This document shows, in pieces, positions 35 to 48,810 of a DNA stretch of 64,000 nucleotides. The stretch comes from Escherichia coli. Its GTDB lineage: Bacteria; Pseudomonadota; Gammaproteobacteria; Enterobacterales; Enterobacteriaceae. The notes beneath the pieces are model-generated. The model saw only the letters and a program-made list of their open reading frames with translations, searched no databases and had not been told where the DNA came from. The stretch's first letter is position 1, and every line of letters begins with the position of its first letter. Where the stretch lies: the NCBI RefSeq assembly GCF_030384885.1, contig NZ_CP128613.1; one strand, written 5' to 3'. The position numbers and the translations under genes are program-made.

Positions 35-2494
35 ATGGACACCGTGAATATTTATCGACTCTCTTTTGTATCCTGCCTGGTCATGGCGATGCCTTCCGCC
101 ATGGCGGTTGAATTCAACCTGAATGTCCTCGACAAATCGATGCGTGAGCGCATTGATATTTCATTATTAAAGGAAAAAGGTGTCATTGCTCCCGGTGAAT
201 ATTTTGTCAGCGTTGCGGTAAATAATAACCAAATTAGTAATGGGCAAAAAATTAACTGGCAAAAAAAGGGTGACACTACCATTCCGTGCATCAATGATTT
301 ATTGGTCGATAAGTTTGGCTTAAAACCCGAAGTCCGTCAGTCGTTACCTCTGATTAATCAGTGCGTCGATTTTAGCTCCCGACCAGAAATGCTCTTCAAT
401 TTTGATCAGGCCAGTCAGCAACTGAATATCACCATCCCACAGGCCTGGCTGGCGTGGCAGTCAGATAACTGGACTCCACCCTCCACATGGAAAGAAGGTG
501 TCCCCGGTGTCCTGATGGATTACAACTTGTTTGCCAGCAGCTACCGCCCACAGGATGGTAGCAACAGCACTAACCTGAACGCCTATGGAACAGCCGGAAT
601 TAACGCGGGAGCATGGCGTTTACGCAGTGATTACCAATTGAATCAGACCGATAGCGATGATAACCATGAACAGTCAGGCGAAATATCACGCACCTATCTT
701 TTTCGTCCATTACCGCAATTAGGTTCAAAATTAACCCTTGGTGAAACGGATTTCAGTTCCAATATTTTCGACGGCTTTTCTTATACCGGCGCGGCACTGG
801 CGAGTGACGACCGGATGTTACCGTGGGAACTGCGCGGCTACGCTCCACAAATTAGCGGTATTGCACAAACCAATGCCACGGTGACGATCAGTCAATCAGG
901 CCGCGTCATCTACCAGAAAAAAGTCCCGCCAGGCCCGTTTATCATTGATGACCTTAATCAGTCCGTCCAGGGTACGTTGGATGTCAAAGTGACGGAAGAA
1001 GATGGTCGGGTGAACAATTTCCAGGTTTCGGCAGCATCGACGCCTTTCCTTACGCGCCAGGGGCAGGTTCGCTATAAACTTGCTGCCGGTCAGCCGCGAA
1101 CATCTATGTCTCATCAAACTGAAAATGAAACCTTTTTTAGCAATGAAGTTTCCTGGGGGATGCTGTCAAATACCTCGCTGTACGGCGGCCTGCTGATTTC
1201 GGGTGATGACTACCATTCTGCCGCAATGGGTATCGGGCAAAATATGCTCTGGCTTGGTGCATTGTCGTTTGATGTCACCTGGGCCAGTAGTCAGTTTGAT
1301 ACTCAGCAGGACGAGCGGGGCTTAAGTTACCGCTTTAATTACAGCAAACAAGTGGATGCCACTAACAGCACGATTTCGCTCGCCGCTTATCGCTTCTCAG
1401 ATCGTCATTTTCACAGCTACGCCAACTATCTGGATCACAAATACAACGACAACGATGCGCAGGACGAAAAACAGACGATCAGCTTATCCGTGGGGCAACC
1501 GATTACCCCACTGAACCTCAATCTGTACGCCAACCTGCTGCATCAAACCTGGTGGAATGCAGACGCCTCCACGACCGCCAACATCACGGCGGGTTTTAAT
1601 GTTGATATTGGTAACTGGAGAGATATCTCGATCTCGACGTCATTCAATACAACCCATTACGAAGATAAAGATCGCGACAACCAGATTTACCTGTCGATTT
1701 CGCTTCCCTTCGGTAACGGTGGTCGGGTCGGTTATGACATGCAAAACAGTAGCCACAGCACCACACACCGCATGTCGTGGAACGATACGCTGGATGAACG
1801 AAATAGCTGGGGGATGTCTGCTGGACTACAATCCGACCGTCCGGACAATGGAGCCCAGGTGAGCGGTAACTATCAGCACCTGAGTTCAGCGGGTGAGTGG
1901 GATCTTTCTGGTACTTATGCTGCCAATGACTACAGTTCTGTTAGCAGCAGCTGGAGTGGTTCTTTCACGGCGACGCAATATGGTGCAGCCTTCCATCGCC
2001 GCAGCTCCACCAATGAACCACGCCTGATGGTCAGCACCGATGGCGTGGCAGATATTCCGGTTCAGGGCAATCTCGACTACACCAACCATTTTGGCATTGC
2101 AGTGGTACCGCTGGTTTCCAGTTATCAACCTTCCACCGTGGCCGTGAACATGAACGACTTACCCGACGGCGTGACGGTGACAGAAAACGTCATCAAAGAA
2201 ACGTGGATTGAAGGCGCAATAGGTTACAAATCACTGGCATCCCGTTCCGGTAAAGACATTAACGTTATCATTCGCAACGCCAGCGGTCAGTTCCCTCCCC
2301 TCGGTGCGGATATCCGTCAGGATGGCAGCAGCATTAGCGTGGGGATGGTTGGCGAGGAAGGACACGCCTGGTTAAGCGGAGTCGCTGAAAATCAAAAGTT
2401 TACCGTGGTCTGGGGTGATAGTCAGCGTTGCTCGATCCATCTTCCTGAACATATGGAAGACACCGCAAATCGCCTGATTTTACCTTGTCATTAA
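35..2494 (+). CDS. ybgQ: Fimbrial outer-membrane usher protein (chaperone-usher pathway)
   Basis: 819-aa ORF with N-terminal signal peptide (MDTVNIYRLSFVSCLVMAMPSAMA), usher-typical size, immediately followed by an overlapping PapD-like chaperone gene; synteny with ybgQPO next to abrB/nei. Confidence 0.8.
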   Translation: MDTVNIYRLSFVSCLVMAMPSAMAVEFNLNVLDKSMRERIDISLLKEKGVIAPGEYFVSVAVNNNQISNGQKINWQKKGDTTIPCINDLLVDKFGLKPEVRQSLPLINQCVDFSSRPEMLFNFDQASQQLNITIPQAWLAWQSDNWTPPSTWKEGVPGVLMDYNLFASSYRPQDGSNSTNLNAYGTAGINAGAWRLRSDYQLNQTDSDDNHEQSGEISRTYLFRPLPQLGSKLTLGETDFSSNIFDGFSYTGAALASDDRMLPWELRGYAPQISGIAQTNATVTISQSGRVIYQKKVPPGPFIIDDLNQSVQGTLDVKVTEEDGRVNNFQVSAASTPFLTRQGQVRYKLAAGQPRTSMSHQTENETFFSNEVSWGMLSNTSLYGGLLISGDDYHSAAMGIGQNMLWLGALSFDVTWASSQFDTQQDERGLSYRFNYSKQVDATNSTISLAAYRFSDRHFHSYANYLDHKYNDNDAQDEKQTISLSVGQPITPLNLNLYANLLHQTWWNADASTTANITAGFNVDIGNWRDISISTSFNTTHYEDKDRDNQIYLSISLPFGNGGRVGYDMQNSSHSTTHRMSWNDTLDERNSWGMSAGLQSDRPDNGAQVSGNYQHLSSAGEWDLSGTYAANDYSSVSSSWSGSFTATQYGAAFHRRSSTNEPRLMVSTDGVADIPVQGNLDYTNHFGIAVVPLVSSYQPSTVAVNMNDLPDGVTVTENVIKETWIEGAIGYKSLASRSGKDINVIIRNASGQFPPLGADIRQDGSSISVGMVGEEGHAWLSGVAENQKFTVVWGDSQRCSIHLPEHMEDTANRLILPCH

Positions 2495-2508
2495 TTAAGG
2501 AAATGAAA

Positions 2509-3240
2509 ATGACATTTATGAAAGGACTTCCCCTTTTGTTGTTGGTTACCAGTCTGTGTAGCCACGCTGCACTACAACCCGACCGCACTCGCATTGTGTT
2601 TAACGCTAATGATAAAGCTACCAGTCTGCGAGTAGATAATCGTAGCGATAAACTCCCCTACCTCGCTTATTCCTGGCTCGAAAATGAAAAAGGGGAGAAA
2701 AGCGACGATCTTCTGGTCGCCCTGCCACCGATACAACGTCTGGAACCGAAAGCAACAACGCAGGTGCGGATAGTCAAGCAAGCCTCGACCGCGAAATTAC
2801 CGGGCGATCGCGAAACGCTATTTTTCTACAATATGCGTGAAATTCCTCCCGCCCCGGAAAAAAACAGCGACCATGCCGTTCTGCAAGTCGCCATCCAGAG
2901 CCGTATCAAGGTGTTCTGGCGACCGTCTGCATTACGCAAGAAAGCAGGAGAAAAGGTCGAACTGCAGTTACAGGTCAGCCAGCAGGGCAATCAGCTTAGC
3001 TTAAAAAACCCTACTGGCTATTATCTGACCATCGCGTATCTTGGGCGAAATGAGCAAAGCGTTCTCCCGGGCTTCAAAACTGTGATGATTGCGCCTTTTA
3101 GTACAGTAAGCACAACCACTGGAAATTATAGTGGCAGCCAGTTTTATCTCGGTTATATGGATGATTATGGCGCATTACGCATGACAACGCTCAACTGTAA
3201 CGGGCAATGCCGTTTACAGGCTGTGGAGGCGAAGAAATGA
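2509..3240 (+). CDS. ybgP: Periplasmic fimbrial chaperone (PapD-like)
   Basis: ORF 2485..3240; PapD-family motifs ([40 protein letters not shown]), signal peptide; start placed at MTFMKG (2509) to give ~242 aa; overlaps usher stop. Confidence 0.8.
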
Positions 3241-4298
3241 GTGCTGGCAAGGGATTGTTGCTCATCATCTGTCTGTTATTTCTACCGTTAAAATCTGCGC
3301 TTGCCCTGAACTGTTACTTTGGTTCATCCGGTGGTTCGGTAGAAAAATCGGAATCTATTCAACCATTTGCTGTACCAGGGAATGCCAAACCCGGCGATAA
3401 GATCTGGGAGTCTGACGATATTAAAATTTCCGTCTATTGTGACAACAATACCAACGGCAACTTTGAGAGCGAGCATGTCTACGCCTGGGTAAACCCGTAC
3501 CCGGGAATTCAGGATCGCTATTATCAACTCGGCGTAACTTACAATGGTGTTGATTATGATGCTAACCAGGGAAAAAGCCGCATCGACACTAACCAGTGCA
3601 TCGACAGCAAAAACATTAATATTTATACCCCTGAGCAGATCATCGCGATGGGATGGCAGAACAAAATTTGCTCTGGTGATCCCAATAATATTCATATGTC
3701 GCGTACGTTTCTCGCTCGCATACGGTTATACGTCAAGATACGAGAGATACCGCCGCATGATTATCAAAGCACGCTCAGCGATTACATTGTGGTGCAATTT
3801 GATGGCGAAGGAAGCGTTAATGAGGACCCTACCGCCCAAAACCTGAAATATCATATTACCGGTCTGGAAAACATTCGGGTATTGGATTGCAGCGTCAATT
3901 TTTCTATTACCCCAGCCAACCAGGTCATTGATTTTGGTAAATTTAATGTACTGGATATCCGGCGACACAACATGACAAAAACATTCGGTATTAAAACGAC
4001 AAAATCACAAAACGATCAATGTACCGACGGATTCAAAGTCAGCTCTTCGTTTTATACCGAAGAAACGCTGGTTGAAGAAGATAAAGCATTGCTGATTGGC
4101 AATGGTCTGAAGCTACGTTTACTGGATGAAAACGCCTCGCCCTATACCTTCAACAAATACAGCGAATATGCCGACTTCACCAGTGACATGCTGATCTACG
4201 AAAAAACCTATACGGCTGAACTTTCGTCTATTCCCGGCACTCCCATTGAGGCTGGCTCCTTCGATACCGTGGTGCTTTTTAAGATTAACTATAACTAA
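3237..4298 (+). CDS. ybgO: Fimbrial-like adhesin/subunit protein
   Basis: ORF 3207..4298; start at ATG 3237 overlapping chaperone stop (ATGA); signal peptide [17 protein letters not shown]; last gene of chaperone-usher operon. Confidence 0.7.
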
Positions 4299-4448
4299 TT
4301 TCCCATGATGCCCTTTGCAACCGAAAGGGCATCTCTTTCAGAAAATTGCTGATTTTCCCCTTTTCCTTGATTGCTGTTATTTTTTCCTGGCCCGGCTTTC
4401 TTTATGCTGTATCGATACACCAAAGAGAAAATAATGAGGAAGCGAAGG

Positions 4449-5495
4449 ATGCCAGTTTTGCAGTGGGGAATGTTATGTGTGCTTTCACTTCTCCTTTCTA
4501 TTGGCTTCCTCGCGGTACATCTTCCGGCGGCACTATTACTTGGGCCAATGATCGCCGGAATCATCTTTAGTATGCGCGGAATTACTCTGCAACTTCCCCG
4601 ATCCGCTTTTCTCGCCGCCCAAGCCATTCTTGGCTGCATGATTGCGCAAAACCTCACTGGTTCGATTCTCACCACGCTAGCCGTTAACTGGCCGATTGTG
4701 CTAGCCATTTTACTCGTGACGTTACTTTCCAGCGCCATCGTGGGTTGGTTATTGGTGCGCTATAGCTCACTGCCTGGAAATACCGGTGCCTGGGGTTCTT
4801 CTCCTGGCGGCGCGGCGGCAATGGTCGCTATGGCGCAAGATTACGGCGCAGATATTCGCCTGGTGGCATTTATGCAATATCTGCGAGTGCTGTTCGTCGC
4901 GGGGGCCGCTGTTCTGGTCACCCGCATGATGCTGGGCGATAACGCTGAAGCGGTTAACCAGCAGATCGTCTGGTTCCCGCCAGTGAGCATTAATCTCCTG
5001 CTTACGATTTTGCTCGCGGTCGTTGCCGGTACGGCGGGATGCTTGCTACGTCTTCCTTCCGGCACGATGCTCATCCCGATGCTGGCGGGCGCAGTGCTCC
5101 AGTCTGGTCAGCTCATCACCATCGAACTACCAGAATGGCTGCTGGCGATGGCGTATATGGCAATTGGCTGGCGGATTGGTCTTGGTTTCGATAAGCAAAT
5201 CTTACTGCGGGCATTGCGCCCGCTGCCACAAATCTTGCTGTCGATTTTTGCTCTGCTGGCTATTTGTGCAGGTATGGCGTGGGGACTGACCCGGTTTATG
5301 CATATTGATTTTATGACTGCCTACCTCGCCACCAGTCCCGGCGGGCTTGATACCGTGGCGGTCATCGCCGCAGGGAGCAATGCCGATATGGCGCTTATTA
5401 TGGCGATGCAAACCCTACGCCTGTTCAGTATTTTGCTGACGGGGCCAGCCATTGCGCGGTTTATTTCAACCTATGCGCCGAAGCGGTCGGCCTAG
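4449..5495 (+). CDS. abrB: AbrB-family inner-membrane protein (putative regulator/transporter)
   Basis: ORF 4371..5495, polytopic hydrophobic protein; start chosen at MPVLQWGML (348 aa), alternative in-frame ATG at 4434. Confidence 0.75.
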
Positions 5496-14881: not shown

Positions 14882-15235
14882 TCAAAAATATACATCATCA
14901 GCTTCTACCGAAAACTCCATGGCTCCTAAGGCACCTAAATCAATACTAAATATAGTATCACTTTCCTTAGCACTCCCAACATAGATAAAATAGCCTAAAT
15001 CTCCGTCTTGACCTATCAAAAAATAGTCAGGTTCCACTTGTTGAATATCATATGTTTCATTTCTTTCAATAAGATCAGAATAGTTATATAAATATAATGT
15101 TTCGTGCTTCTTATTAGTTATTTCATAGGTCTCACTATCTTTAATTTCTTCTATCAAAAAACGTTTATACACTGGAGGAAACTTGATTGACATGTCAAAT
15201 TCAATTTTATTTATATATTCTATAATTTTATTCAT
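14882..15235 (-). CDS. SUKH/SMI1-KNR4-like immunity-type protein (island ORF 1)
   Basis: 117-aa ORF; FPPVYKRFLIEE ... YFLIGQDGDLGYFIYVG resembles the SMI1/KNR4 (SUKH-1) pattern (aromatic/Pro N-terminal motif plus GxDGxGxxxY) seen in polymorphic-toxin immunity proteins; assignment by eye only. Confidence 0.5.
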   Translation of the reverse strand: MNKIIEYINKIEFDMSIKFPPVYKRFLIEEIKDSETYEITNKKHETLYLYNYSDLIERNETYDIQQVEPDYFLIGQDGDLGYFIYVGSAKESDTIFSIDLGALGAMEFSVEADDVYF

Positions 15236-15469
15236 GTTAAGAATACCTGAAAGATTATTTATTGATTATCTTGATGAATATATCTTCACTTTTTATTTTC
15301 ATTTACTCATCGCGGAAATACACATTGCCTTGTAGACAAGCGCTAATAATACGTTATGAACCTGACTTCCGCCAGACAATCAATCTATGAATTCATTACG
15401 CCGTAGTGTTTTAGAAAGACACTTTCTGACCAGATGGTGAACCATATACTACATCGCGCATTATAAAAA

Positions 15470-45411: not shown

Positions 45412-45630
45412 ACCGCTTACCAAAACTCGCCCATTCAATAAAACCTGCAAAAAATTATCGATCCATCAATAAACATGCCTCTACACCCTACCTTTTTTCA
45501 TCAATCAGCAATCACCATTACGTTTTTTATTCCCCCCCTGCCAAATCGCTTGCGCACAGTGCTGCTTTGCGGCATTTTTTTAAACAAGCAAACACAACAA
45601 GCAACAAATACCAGGTTAACGGAGAAGGTT

Positions 45631-47295
45631 ATGTGTTCAATTTTTGGCGTATTCGATATCAAAACAGACGCAGTTGAGCTGCGTAAGAAAGCACTCGAGC
45701 TGTCACGCCTGATGCGTCATCGTGGCCCGGACTGGTCCGGTATTTATGCCAGCGATAACGCCATTCTCGCCCACGAACGTCTGTCCATTGTTGACGTTAA
45801 CGCGGGGGCGCAACCTCTCTACAACCAACAAAAAACTCATGTGCTGGCAGTAAACGGTGAAATCTACAACCACCAGGCATTGCGCGCTGAATATGGCGAT
45901 CGTTACCAGTTCCAGACCGGGTCTGACTGTGAAGTGATCCTCGCGCTGTATCAGGAAAAAGGGCCGGAATTTCTCGACGATTTGCAGGGCATGTTCGCTT
46001 TTGCCCTGTACGACAGCGAAAAAGATGCGTATCTGATTGGTCGCGATCATCTGGGGATCATCCCACTGTATATGGGCTATGACGAACATGGTCAGCTGTA
46101 TGTGGCCTCAGAAATGAAAGCCCTGGTGCCGGTATGCCGCACGATTAAAGAGTTCCCGGCGGGGAGCTATTTGTGGAGTCAGGACGGCGAAATCCGTTCT
46201 TATTATCACCGCGACTGGTTCGACTACGATGCGGTGAAAGATAACGTGACCGACAAAAACGAGCTGCGTCAGGCACTGGAAGATTCCGTTAAAAGCCATC
46301 TGATGTCTGATGTGCCTTACGGTGTGCTGCTTTCTGGTGGTCTGGATTCCTCAATTATTTCCGCGATCACCAAGAAATACGCAGCCCGTCGCGTGGAAGA
46401 TCAGGAACGCTCTGAAGCCTGGTGGCCGCAGCTGCACTCCTTTGCTGTAGGTCTGCCGGGTTCACCGGATCTGAAGGCAGCCCAGGAAGTGGCAAACCAT
46501 CTGGGCACTGTGCATCATGAAATTCACTTCACTGTACAGGAAGGTCTGGACGCCATCCGCGACGTGATTTACCACATTGAAACCTATGATGTGACCACTA
46601 TTCGCGCTTCAACACCGATGTATTTAATGTCGCGTAAGATCAAAGCGATGGGCATTAAAATGGTACTGTCCGGTGAAGGTTCTGATGAAGTGTTTGGCGG
46701 TTATCTCTACTTCCACAAAGCGCCGAACGCTAAAGAACTGCATGAAGAGACGGTGCGTAAACTGCTGGCCCTGCATATGTATGACTGCGCGCGTGCCAAC
46801 AAAGCGATGTCAGCCTGGGGCGTGGAAGCACGCGTTCCGTTCCTCGACAAAAAATTCCTTGATGTGGCGATGCGCATTAACCCACAGGATAAAATGTGCG
46901 GTAACGGCAAAATGGAAAAACACATCCTGCGTGAATGTTTTGAAGCGTATCTGCCTGCAAGCGTGGCCTGGCGGCAGAAAGAGCAGTTCTCCGATGGCGT
47001 CGGTTACAGTTGGATAGACACTCTGAAAGAAGTGGCGGCGCAGCAGGTTTCTGATCAACAACTCGAAACTGCCCGTTTCCGCTTCCCGTACAACACGCCG
47101 ACCTCAAAAGAAGCGTATCTGTATCGGGAAATCTTTGAAGAATTGTTCCCGCTTCCGAGCGCCGCAGAGTGCGTACCGGGCGGTCCTTCCGTCGCGTGTT
47201 CTTCCGCTAAAGCGATTGAGTGGGATGAGGCGTTCAAGAAAATGGACGATCCGTCTGGTCGTGCGGTTGGTGTTCACCAGTCGGCGTATAAGTAA
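45631..47295 (+). CDS. asnB: Asparagine synthetase B (glutamine-hydrolysing)
   Basis: ORF 45475..47295; start at MCSIFGVFDIK (N-terminal Cys nucleophile after Met), 554 aa. Confidence 0.95.
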   Translation: MCSIFGVFDIKTDAVELRKKALELSRLMRHRGPDWSGIYASDNAILAHERLSIVDVNAGAQPLYNQQKTHVLAVNGEIYNHQALRAEYGDRYQFQTGSDCEVILALYQEKGPEFLDDLQGMFAFALYDSEKDAYLIGRDHLGIIPLYMGYDEHGQLYVASEMKALVPVCRTIKEFPAGSYLWSQDGEIRSYYHRDWFDYDAVKDNVTDKNELRQALEDSVKSHLMSDVPYGVLLSGGLDSSIISAITKKYAARRVEDQERSEAWWPQLHSFAVGLPGSPDLKAAQEVANHLGTVHHEIHFTVQEGLDAIRDVIYHIETYDVTTIRASTPMYLMSRKIKAMGIKMVLSGEGSDEVFGGYLYFHKAPNAKELHEETVRKLLALHMYDCARANKAMSAWGVEARVPFLDKKFLDVAMRINPQDKMCGNGKMEKHILRECFEAYLPASVAWRQKEQFSDGVGYSWIDTLKEVAAQQVSDQQLETARFRFPYNTPTSKEAYLYREIFEELFPLPSAAECVPGGPSVACSSAKAIEWDEAFKKMDDPSGRAVGVHQSAYK

Positions 47296-47336
47296 GAAAT
47301 GCGGTACTGCCCCGGAGAAATCCGGGGCTGTTTCAG

Positions 47337-47774
47337 TTATTGAGCTGCTTGTTGATTCTGATATGCAGTAAGGAAATGTTCCGGGTTTGCCACATCACTG
47401 TTTGACAACTCATCACTGTAGGCCACCGACCAGGTCGCCTGCTCATCCGGAATATGCAGGCTGCCATTCCCCTCTTTCAGGCGTAATAACTCAAAAGATT
47501 TGCCCTTAATTACGGCGGTATAGGATTTTTCACCTTCCTGTAATGCTTTCACTTTACAGCGAAAAATCTGGCCATCGATGTCATTATCAACATGCGATAC
47601 CTGAATGAGGGCTTCATTAGAGGCTTTCGGCCCTATCCGCATCATCCACACCACAGCGCCTTCCTGCCCACGATAGCCATAAACATATTTACCGATTTCC
47701 GGTTTGACCGTATCGGCAAACGCAGATTGCATGAGTAATAACGCACCCATCAGCGCCGTCATAAAACGCAGCAT
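47337..47774 (-). CDS. Hypothetical secreted/periplasmic protein
   Basis: 145-aa ORF with SD gaggg 7 nt upstream of ATG and a classical signal peptide MLRFMTALMGALLLMQSAFA|DT; no family recognised. Confidence 0.6.
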   Translation of the reverse strand: MLRFMTALMGALLLMQSAFADTVKPEIGKYVYGYRGQEGAVVWMMRIGPKASNEALIQVSHVDNDIDGQIFRCKVKALQEGEKSYTAVIKGKSFELLRLKEGNGSLHIPDEQATWSVAYSDELSNSDVANPEHFLTAYQNQQAAQ

Positions 47775-48037
47775 AGTATTCCCTCAATAAATCGCCTGAA
47801 GTGGTAGCAGAGATGCAGGCGTAGCGATCCCTGCCCTGTCCTGTTGCAACGGGCCAGTATTTCATAGATTAATTTCCTACCACTATTGTTGAATTCCGAA
47901 TTTCATCCTGTATGACAAAAGAATGGCTGTAGGGTGGGGAAAAAACACAAAGTAAACAATAATTGACGAATATAGCGCCACGCTGTTCGCAACCTAACCA
48001 AACAGTCACTTTCGAGCAATTTTCCTTGAAAAAGAGG

Positions 48038-48075
48038 TTGACGCTGCAAGGCTCTATACGCATAATGCGCCCCGC
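48038..48075 (+). promoter_or_regulatory. Sigma70 promoter of the tRNA operon (stable-RNA type)
   Basis: -35 ttgacg (48038..48043), 17-bp spacer, -10 cataat (48061..48066), GC-rich discriminator gcgccccgc; AT-rich UP-like region upstream. Confidence 0.7.
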
Positions 48076-48106
48076 AACGCCGATAAGGTATCGCGAAAAA
48101 AAAGAT

Positions 48107-48183
48107 GGCTACGTAGCTCAGTTGGTTAGAGCACATCACTCATAATGATGGGGTCACAGGTTCGAATCCCGTCGTAGCCACCA
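48107..48183 (+). tRNA. metT: tRNA-Met (elongator, anticodon CAT)
   Basis: ggctacgtagctcagttggttagagcacatcactCATaatgatggggtcacaggttcgaatcccgtcgtagccacca; cloverleaf with CCA end. Confidence 0.95.
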
Positions 48184-48191
48184 TCTTTTTT

Positions 48192-48276
48192 GCGGGAGTG
48201 GCGAAATTGGTAGACGCACCAGATTTAGGTTCTGGCGCCGCAAGGTGTGCGAGTTCAAGTCTCGCCTCCCGCACCA
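48192..48276 (+). tRNA. leuW: tRNA-Leu (long variable arm; anticodon read as TAG, assigned by eye)
   Basis: gcgggagtggcgaaattggtagacgcaccagatttaggttctggcgccgcaaggtgtgcgagttcaagtctcgcctcccgcacca (85 nt). Confidence 0.9.
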
Positions 48277-48299
48277 TTCACCAGAAAGCGTTGTACGGA

Positions 48300-48374
48300 T
48301 GGGGTATCGCCAAGCGGTAAGGCACCGGTTTTTGATACCGGCATTCCCTGGTTCGAATCCAGGTACCCCAGCCA
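48300..48374 (+). tRNA. glnU: tRNA-Gln (anticodon TTG)
   Basis: tggggtatcgccaagcggtaaggcaccggtttTTGataccggcattccctggttcgaatccaggtaccccagcca. Confidence 0.9.
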
Positions 48375-48407
48375 TCTTCTTCGAGTAAGCGGTTCACCGC
48401 CCGGTTA

Positions 48408-48482
48408 TTGGGGTATCGCCAAGCGGTAAGGCACCGGTTTTTGATACCGGCATTCCCTGGTTCGAATCCAGGTACCCCAGCC
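48408..48482 (+). tRNA. glnW: tRNA-Gln (anticodon TTG), second copy
   Basis: Identical 75-nt sequence to 48300..48374. Confidence 0.9.
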
Positions 48483-48497
48483 ATCGAAGAAACAATC

Positions 48498-48574
48498 TGG
48501 CTACGTAGCTCAGTTGGTTAGAGCACATCACTCATAATGATGGGGTCACAGGTTCGAATCCCGTCGTAGCCACC
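48498..48574 (+). tRNA. metU: tRNA-Met (elongator, anticodon CAT), second copy
   Basis: Identical to 48107..48183. Confidence 0.95.
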
Positions 48575-48623
48575 AAATTCTGAATGTGTCGAATGCGTTC
48601 GGCAAATTCACAAACCAATTTGT

Positions 48624-48698
48624 TGGGGTATCGCCAAGCGGTAAGGCACCGGATTCTGATTCCGGCATTCCGAGGTTCGAATCCTCGTACCCCAGCCA
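48624..48698 (+). tRNA. glnV: tRNA-Gln (anticodon CTG)
   Basis: tggggtatcgccaagcggtaaggcaccggattCTGattccggcattccgaggttcgaatcctcgtaccccagcca. Confidence 0.9.
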
Positions 48699-48735
48699 AT
48701 TTATTCAAGACGCTTACCTTGTAAGTGCACCCAGT

Positions 48736-48810
48736 TGGGGTATCGCCAAGCGGTAAGGCACCGGATTCTGATTCCGGCATTCCGAGGTTCGAATCCTCGT
48801 ACCCCAGCCA
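48736..48810 (+). tRNA. glnX: tRNA-Gln (anticodon CTG), second copy
   Basis: Identical 75-nt sequence to 48624..48698. Confidence 0.9.

Follow-up and report, generated by a model that had tools for sequence, protein, structure and literature searches.

A small gene for a putative periplasmic barrel protein between asnB and the metT tRNA operon, and its apparent loss from most Escherichia coli

Why do some strains of Escherichia coli have a protein-coding gene between asnB and the metT tRNA operon, when K-12 has none? The question is raised by a stretch of 64,000 nucleotides of E. coli DNA (RefSeq assembly GCF_030384885.1, contig NZ_CP128613.1; called here the window). In the window, the spacer between the two measures 811 bp (47296-48106, from the end of asnB at 47295 to the start of the tRNA-Met gene metT at 48107) and holds an open reading frame (ORF) for 145 amino acids on the opposite strand. 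The spacer of MG1655 is 379 bp long and has no annotated feature. A preliminary description of the window had reported a spacer of about 810 bp with a well-formed ORF of this length behind a Shine-Dalgarno GAGGG, and had given K-12 a shorter spacer with no protein gene; both statements are borne out (Table 1). It had also proposed that the gene is a small insertion at a tRNA integration point. Is it? Or is the gene old at this site and missing elsewhere? And what could its product do? The answer favoured here, which we consider likely, is that the ORF functions as a monocistronic gene, that its product is a small soluble barrel protein of the periplasm, presumably a binding module, and that the gene is ancestral at this site and was lost by deletion in most E. 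coli.

Insertion here or deletion elsewhere

Is the ORF a gene at all? RefSeq already knows it as a hypothetical protein, and both orthologues and distant homologues exist. In pairwise comparisons by the Nei-Gojobori method, the ratio of non-synonymous to synonymous divergence (dN/dS) is 0.07 between the alleles of the window and of ST131 (4 non-synonymous and 15 synonymous differences) and 0.07-0.15 for the unsaturated pairs among E. coli, E. albertii, E. whittamii, Salmonella enterica subsp. indica (S. indica) and two Pseudocitrobacter species. To judge by the annotation, the relatives and these ratios, it is not a chance ORF. Because dN/dS is this low, a chance ORF is excluded and a silent relic is disfavoured; the values indicate purifying selection on the gene where it is kept.

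What, then, distinguishes strains with the gene from those without it? The alignment with MG1655 and other strains that the preliminary description had suggested sets a long form against a short form. The short spacers (380 bp in BL21 and CFT073) are collinear with the window apart from a single gap of 431 bp, which takes codons 1-117 and most of codon 118 (354 coding nt in all), together with 77 nt of leader 5' of the ORF. The short form keeps the 3' end of the ORF. This remnant of 84 nt encodes SDELSNSDVANPEHFLTAYQNQQAPQ (conserved as ...SDELSNSDVANPEHFLTAYQNQQA(A/P)Q), which includes PEHFLTAY, the most conserved C-terminal motif of the protein family. The pentamer GGCCA is found at both edges of the missing segment in the long form and as a single copy in the short form. 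Since the empty site still holds part of the ORF, which an insertion cannot leave behind, the K-12-type allele is a deletion. By this reasoning the short K-12 form is the derived state and the long form the ancestral one.

Related species point the same way. Protein searches found orthologues of 145-146 aa in E. albertii, E. marmotae, E. ruysiae, E. whittamii, unnamed Escherichia clades and Superficieibacter; identity is 88% for S. indica and 64-72% for Pseudocitrobacter species. In the three DNA contexts that were read (E. albertii, P. cyperus and S. indica), the gene lies each time between asnB and the tRNA array, ubiF and miaB, in the same orientation. A scan of species-representative genomes returned five loci and adds E. 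whittamii and P. vendiensis as carriers; it relied on two short peptide patterns and a narrow alignment and is not a taxonomic census.

Where does this leave a strain-specific insertion that brought a secreted factor to the tRNA cluster? The gene is missing from K-12 and from most E. coli, and the G+C content of its spacer is slightly low (46-48%, about 47%, against 49-55% in the flanks). Its remoter homologues sit at unrelated loci, one of them where K-12 has tRNA genes, and the gene has been transferred laterally, as an allele common to S. indica and the E. coli strain OkiPb01715 shows. All of this would suit an insertion. However, the 'empty' sites hold the 84 nt of the ORF with the conserved motif of the family, synteny extends across three genera, and the GGCCA repeats that flank the segment in gene-bearing strains are a signature of deletion. 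Nor does the locus look like a tRNA-associated integrative element or genomic islet. The ORF list has no integrase or recombinase in the spacer, and the repeats there are chance-level 9-19-mers, with no attachment-site-like or long flanking repeat and no duplicated tRNA 3' end. The gene lies upstream of the promoter of the tRNA operon, not at any tRNA 3' end, and composition is only mildly low. A small insertion at a tRNA hot spot was rejected in view of the remnant, the synteny and the missing integrase and attachment repeats, and we find it scarcely credible. Of the preliminary proposal, therefore, one half stands, namely that the gene is real, exported, strain-variable and absent from K-12 (985 of 5,426 complete genomes carry the segment), and the half that made it an insertion falls with the remnant and the outgroups. 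The same description had set disruption of the ORF in most strains against its own insertion, and this is in effect what is seen (about 82% deletion and about 3% frameshift).

Gene remnants left in K-12 by microhomology deletions are a general class in E. coli comparative genomics. The present case is like its other members in having an internal deletion bounded by a short repeat, a 3' fragment in K-12 and an intact gene in other phylogroups; it differs from them in that the stump at asnB-metT is unannotated in MG1655. The 379-bp spacer of that strain is not simply intergenic, as it holds the end of an ancestral gene. A literature search by protein accessions found no paper mentioning the locus.

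Loss and retention within E. coli

How far has the loss gone? A 1-kb query made of the spacer has matches in 5,424 of 5,426 complete E. coli genomes, in only 985 of them at full length, and these carry the 431-bp segment in a single copy that is always chromosomal. The alleles were sorted in an evenly spaced sample of 60 of the 985 carriers. More than half (34) have an allele of 97.0% identity, among them ST131 strains (JJ1887, O25b:H4-ST131); the JJ1887 annotation gives an intact coding sequence (WP_000943484.1). Another 15 have alleles 99.3-99.8% identical to the window, one has a divergent allele (88%), and ten, about one in six, have an allele that is one base shorter. The best match to the window is strain 2013C-4282, with 99.8% identity over the segment and 99.9% over the 1-kb query. 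All three of the one-base-shorter records that were opened (L007, L031 and L032) are annotated by RefSeq as 'frameshifted', and in the single one aligned, WP8-S17-ESBL-12 (L007), one A is missing from a run of five. From the alignment, this one-nucleotide frameshift is a second, independent route to inactivation. Extrapolated from the 60 genomes, the gene is deleted in about 82% of complete genomes, frameshifted in about 3% and intact in about 15%; the intact lineages include ST131, CE10 and several poultry and Shiga toxin-producing E. coli (STEC) isolates. The locus offers a clean view of gene loss in progress within one species, in three states: a microhomology deletion that has spread across phylogroups, a frameshift that arose independently, and alleles that stay intact and are under purifying selection.

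Did the deletion happen once? A 100-nt query laid across the K-12 junction matches 5,418 genomes, and the sampled gene-less genomes, which include O157:H7, O26:H11, XL1-Blue and BL21 derivatives, each match it in one contiguous piece. By this measure one junction is common to essentially all gene-less strains. CFT073, of phylogroup B2, has the same junction (15009-15388 of its record), but what is left of its flank has the substitutions seen in the ST131 allele (JJ1887) and not those of K-12; the flanks in K-12 and BL21 have a different set. As the flank of CFT073 differs from that of K-12, at least two haplotypes carry the deletion. The polymorphism may be old, recombination may have carried the deletion from one background to another, or it may have recurred at the GGCCA repeats, a pair that is absent in E. 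albertii and in the divergent OkiPb01715 allele.

The divergent allele has a history of its own. It falls in the 80-90% identity band, occurs in four 'E. coli' records and has the S. indica allele as its nearest relative. Between OkiPb01715 (510-947) and S. indica (4001-4438), the synonymous divergence (dS) of the gene is 0.20, and that of the adjacent asnB is 0.64. Since the gene value is far below the asnB value, lateral exchange between an Escherichia lineage and S. indica is indicated, presumably through recombination in the conserved flanks.

Is the region in front of the gene conserved as well? The 130 nt 5' of the ATG are much better conserved than the synonymous sites of the ORF, which are saturated between E. 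coli and Pseudocitrobacter. The ribosome-binding-site block TTATTGAG(G/A)GAATA is the same from E. coli through Pseudocitrobacter, with GAGAG in the OkiPb01715 allele as the sole substitution. Further upstream are invariant non-coding blocks at 47878-47906 and about 47965-48005, with GATGAAATTCGGAATTCAACAATAGTG (in the sense of the gene, an imperfect palindrome) and GTGACTGTTTGGTTAGGTTGCGAACAGCGTG as examples; the segment deleted in K-12 ends just before these blocks. The spacer gave nothing near any gathering score in Rfam, and folding of 47760-47875 (116 nt, from the leader into the ORF by 15 nt) gave a z-score of -0.10, which leaves a structured element unsupported. A sigma-70 scan found only the promoter of the tRNA operon, with no strong consensus on the ORF strand; a sigma-E-like spacing on the conserved upstream block, sought by eye, does not fit. 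The blocks could be the promoter or operator of the ORF, or upstream activating sites of the tRNA promoter, which is divergent from the ORF and invariant in all aligned species.

Could the gene be a decaying relic without function, intact in the window by happenstance and no longer expressed or useful in E. coli? The frequency of deletion and frameshift, the missing promoter consensus and the silence of the literature searched by protein accessions are what a relic would lead one to expect. A dN/dS of 0.07 for the two principal intact alleles of E. coli, and of 0.07-0.15 across species, is not. Conservation of the ribosome-binding site and leader reaches Pseudocitrobacter, the structural model described below is confident and well packed, and the family is wide and has conserved motifs. 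We regard a relic as very unlikely.

The following course of events is proposed instead. The gene would be ancestral at the asnB-metT site in Escherichia and its relatives, and one illegitimate deletion between the two GGCCA pentamers would have removed the 354 coding and 77 leader nucleotides. The resulting allele is now present in about 82% of sequenced E. coli, including K-12, and the frameshift has inactivated the gene in other lineages; those listed above as intact keep the gene under purifying selection.

The predicted protein and its relatives

What kind of protein is being lost? Its N-terminus, MLRFMTALMGALLLMQSAFA followed by DTV, has one positive charge, a hydrophobic core of 13 residues with a mean Kyte-Doolittle value of 1.75 and an A-x-A motif. 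By rule, this is the order expected for Sec and signal peptidase I: M-L-R, then FMTALMGALLLMQ, then A-F-A before D. A rule-based scan of the signal region found no lipobox cysteine and no twin-arginine motif. In the 60-sequence family alignment, orthologues and distant homologues alike keep a hydrophobic N-terminal segment that closes in A-x-A or small residues, and the AlphaFold model shows the segment as a low-confidence helix. The cleavage after AFA given in the preliminary description agrees with the charge, core and A-x-A rules, and the site is rule-based only. From these features we infer that the protein is exported to the periplasm: the precursor would leave by Sec, be cut by signal peptidase I and yield a mature form of about 125 aa, 13.9 kDa and an isoelectric point of about 5.3.

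The AlphaFold2 model, built on a 15-sequence alignment, has a mean predicted local distance difference test (pLDDT) of 84 and a predicted template-modelling score of 0.73, with pLDDT of at least 86 in each 10-residue block from residue 31. Its eight beta-strands lead into two C-terminal helices, the first short and the second long, and the predicted fold is an eight-stranded up-and-down beta-barrel closed by the C-terminal helix. Does the fold tell us the function? Foldseek gave nothing at E<=0.001 against the PDB and BFVD, and the best hit of a profile search of PDB sequences has an E-value of 0.61. In the model, the fold class is clear and has no specific solved relative. Barrels of similar shape are the C-terminal domains of the D-aminopeptidase DAP and of proteins like penicillin-binding proteins and class C beta-lactamases (PDB 1ei5, 2qmi, 4whi and 5hal; identity 5-13%, Foldseek E >=0.012). 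Each of those forms an accessory part of a larger enzyme, whereas this protein is free-standing and secreted. The avidin- and streptavidin-like and calycin binders (bradavidin, shwanavidin, fatty-acid-binding proteins) share the general barrel architecture, for which binding and not catalysis would be expected; TM-scores against them are 0.3-0.45, and there are no biotin-binding residues, lipocalin motifs or sequence similarity. The protein is probably not an enzyme, and we infer that the mature barrel most likely acts as a periplasmic binding module for a small molecule or a protein partner.

Which partner might that be? By shape, the nearest free-standing periplasmic family is MliC/PliC (PF09864; PDB 3oe3, 4mir and 2f09), together with Brucella PhiA (7dpy), and what is shared is the predicted eight-stranded antiparallel barrel and the predicted periplasmic export. 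This shape makes it possible that the protein works like PliC, as a periplasmic inhibitor of a peptidoglycan hydrolase (a lysozyme or lytic transglycosylase) whose active site is plugged by barrel loops. Yet many unrelated meander barrels fit it just as well. Among 60 members of the family, none matches PF09864 at E<=1, when the control, E. coli MliC, matches at 6.7e-18. An hhalign comparison of the 60-sequence family profile with E. coli MliC, a single-sequence template of limited sensitivity, gives a probability of 2.4% over 10 columns of signal peptide. On inspection, the conserved loop motifs of MliC are not evident in the family alignment. Moreover, this protein is some 30-40 residues longer than MliC/PliC, has an extra C-terminal helix that bears PEHFLTAY, is not a lipoprotein and shows no detectable sequence relation to them. 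One homologue does lie between amiC and mltA, but this context is a single case, and an inhibitor of this kind seems unlikely.

The homology search of the 145-aa protein that the preliminary description had called for leads to a family without a name. Pfam, NCBIfam and PADLOC have no significant match for the protein, and the best match in PHROGs has E = 0.036. A hidden Markov model search with a profile of the orthologues collects 213 clusters (50% identity) at E<=1e-3, of which 106 reach E<=1e-10; the usual length is 135-160 aa. The 60-sequence alignment shows the motifs RPEVGxY..Y.G.EG, R.GP, GIDH.WD and PEHFLT.YL.Q. A Pfam scan of the same 60 members gave scattered chance hits only (37 families hit at E<=1). 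UniRef labels the P. cyperus orthologue (P0027) DUF4367, which was not reproduced: the protein of the window has no Pfam hit, and DUF4367 is outside the 25 listed of the 37 families, a list long enough to include families that a single member matches, so that at most one member could match it. The family is found sparsely in Proteobacteria, is uncharacterised and has no Pfam entry.

Some members join the barrel to other domains. P0117 and P0186 have a TIR domain and a transmembrane helix in front of it, and P0076 has a class III adenylate cyclase, a transmembrane helix and a linker. P0141 has a lipobox and a linker, P0128 and P0185 an N-terminal anchor, and P0053 a tandem duplicate of the barrel; other relatives are secreted proteins of about 270 aa with a second, Cys-containing domain. 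An apparent response-regulator fusion (P0097) was set aside, as it looks like a eukaryotic or chimeric gene model. Judged from these architectures, the barrel domain is outside the cytoplasmic membrane in every interpretable fusion. Where it is joined to a TIR or cyclase domain, it stands in the position of a sensor input, and it is possible that it is an undescribed sensor-input domain, linked across the membrane to TIR and cyclase outputs.

Do neighbouring genes say more? Five distant homologues have no recurring partner: they lie between amiC and mltA, fhuE and ptsG, valS and a DUF2147 gene, ftsH and folP, and beside a transglutaminase-core gene. The first of these (P0037, 55% identical, at 5001-5447 of an enterobacterial metagenome contig) stands among three small ORFs of unknown function, at a position where K-12 has the metZWV tRNA genes; the second (P0047) is 54% identical. 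As these two occupy other intergenic sites, the family appears to move between intergenic sites over longer evolutionary distances. Might the gene be an orphan immunity gene, whose product protects against a competitor's toxin (a type VI secretion, contact-dependent inhibition or colicin-like effector) and which is kept only where the toxin is met? Such a gene could well be patchily retained. However, none of the contexts examined has an effector or secretion-system gene close by, the gene keeps its place across genera, which typical immunity islands do not, and the low dN/dS has no sign of diversifying selection. PADLOC, an anti-phage library and thus a weak test here, has no match for the protein or two stand-alone relatives, and only the TIR part of P0117 matches. 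An immunity function is, in our view, highly improbable.

How firm, then, is the preferred reading, that of an ancestral gene for a periplasmic binding module lost in most strains? Several points weigh against it. There is no conserved neighbour to serve as a functional clue, as the context differs in every distant relative examined, and the fold matches are generic, with nothing from Foldseek at the threshold used. The ORF has no sigma-70 promoter consensus. Loss in about 85% of E. coli means that the function is dispensable in most niches. The alleles of S. indica and OkiPb01715 show lateral movement, so strict vertical descent fails in places, and the same junction on two flank haplotypes requires later recombination or an old polymorphism if there was one deletion, with recurrence as another possibility. 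Finally, the case is built on sequence and a structural model.

What would it mean? Most simply, the find is a modest one: an ordinary accessory gene, which leaves the current view of E. coli biology unchanged, and a family of 213 clusters to which attention is drawn. A ligand, if found, would define a new periplasmic sensor domain. A bolder and unlikely extension is that the protein is the E. coli form of an undescribed family of extracytoplasmic barrel sensors and binders, that it binds a host- or competitor-derived molecule (for example as a PliC-like hydrolase inhibitor), and that the same domain is the periplasmic input of the TIR and adenylate cyclase proteins. If so, a niche-specific advantage would explain why ST131 and others retain a gene that K-12-like, B1, O157 and ST73 strains have lost.

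Coordinates and neighbouring features

The features discussed above and those that surround them are collected in Table 1.

Table 1. Features of the asnB-metT region (positions in the window)
Feature	Position	Strand	Evidence and remarks
asnB, asparagine synthase B, 554 aa	45631..47295	+	Left neighbour of the spacer; ORF list and RefSeq annotation of the near-identical strain 2013C-4282
Hairpin, G+C-rich	47309..47328		Between the convergent stops of asnB and the ORF; 8-bp stem with 7 G-C pairs, then TGTTTCAGTT; terminator scan, inverted repeat I5
ORF, 145 aa, putative exported protein	47337..47774 including stop	-	ATG at 47774, TAA at 47337-47339; RefSeq WP_000943490.1 'hypothetical protein'; orthologues, dN/dS, AlphaFold model
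ORF 3' remnant, 84 nt	47337..47420	-	27 codons and stop in frame; survives in K-12-type strains; 83/84 nt identical between window and MG1655/K-12-like
Segment missing from K-12, BL21, O157:H7, O26 and CFT073, 431 bp	47421..47851 (equivalent registers up to 47426-47856)		Alignments
GGCCA microhomology, left copy	47421..47425		Deletion junction
GGCCA microhomology, right copy	47852..47856		Within the short palindrome 47836-47857 (I3)
A5 run (T5 on +)	47526..47530	-	Loses one base in some strains, intact in the window; alignment with WP8-S17-ESBL-12 (L007)
Predicted signal peptide, residues 1-20 (MLRFMTALMGALLLMQSAFA)	47715..47774	-	Predicted cleavage before D21; sequence rules
Conserved upstream region, 5' leader	47775..47906	-	Alignment; blocks invariant from E. 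coli to Pseudocitrobacter, e.g. GATGAAATTCGGA.T.CA.CAAT.G.G at about 47878-47906
Shine-Dalgarno GAGGG	47781..47785	-	6 nt 5' of the ATG
Promoter of metT-leuW-glnUW-metU-glnVX	48038..48066	+	TTGACG, 17 nt, CATAAT, G+C-rich discriminator; promoter scan, 10/12 matches
Seven-tRNA operon (Met, Leu, Gln, Gln, Met, Gln, Gln)	48107..48810	+	Right neighbour; ARAGORN; order as in MG1655 metT-glnX

How do the two convergent genes end? The stem of the hairpin between them is kept in every aligned strain, and the hairpin is probably a shared terminator, which would act in both directions. Two other reading frames were dismissed, neither having support from conservation: a 58-aa ORF that overlaps the gene at 47689-47865, and a 33-codon ORF formed across the K-12 deletion junction. 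In the mechanical ORF list, asnB is 52 codons too long at its 5' end (45475-45630), an artefact, as the true start is the Met of MCSIFGVF at 45631.

Two observations concern the tRNA array itself. In BL21(RP) (record 2170-3570), a partial coding sequence and frlR follow the first tRNA-Gln gene in place of the remaining tRNAs and ubiF, which puts a rearrangement breakpoint inside the array. In S. indica, an extra ORF of 191 aa without a Pfam hit (record 2261-2836, minus strand) lies between ubiF and the 3' end of the array; the corresponding gap in the window is only 153 bp, and this could be a true insertion at the distal end of the tRNA array.

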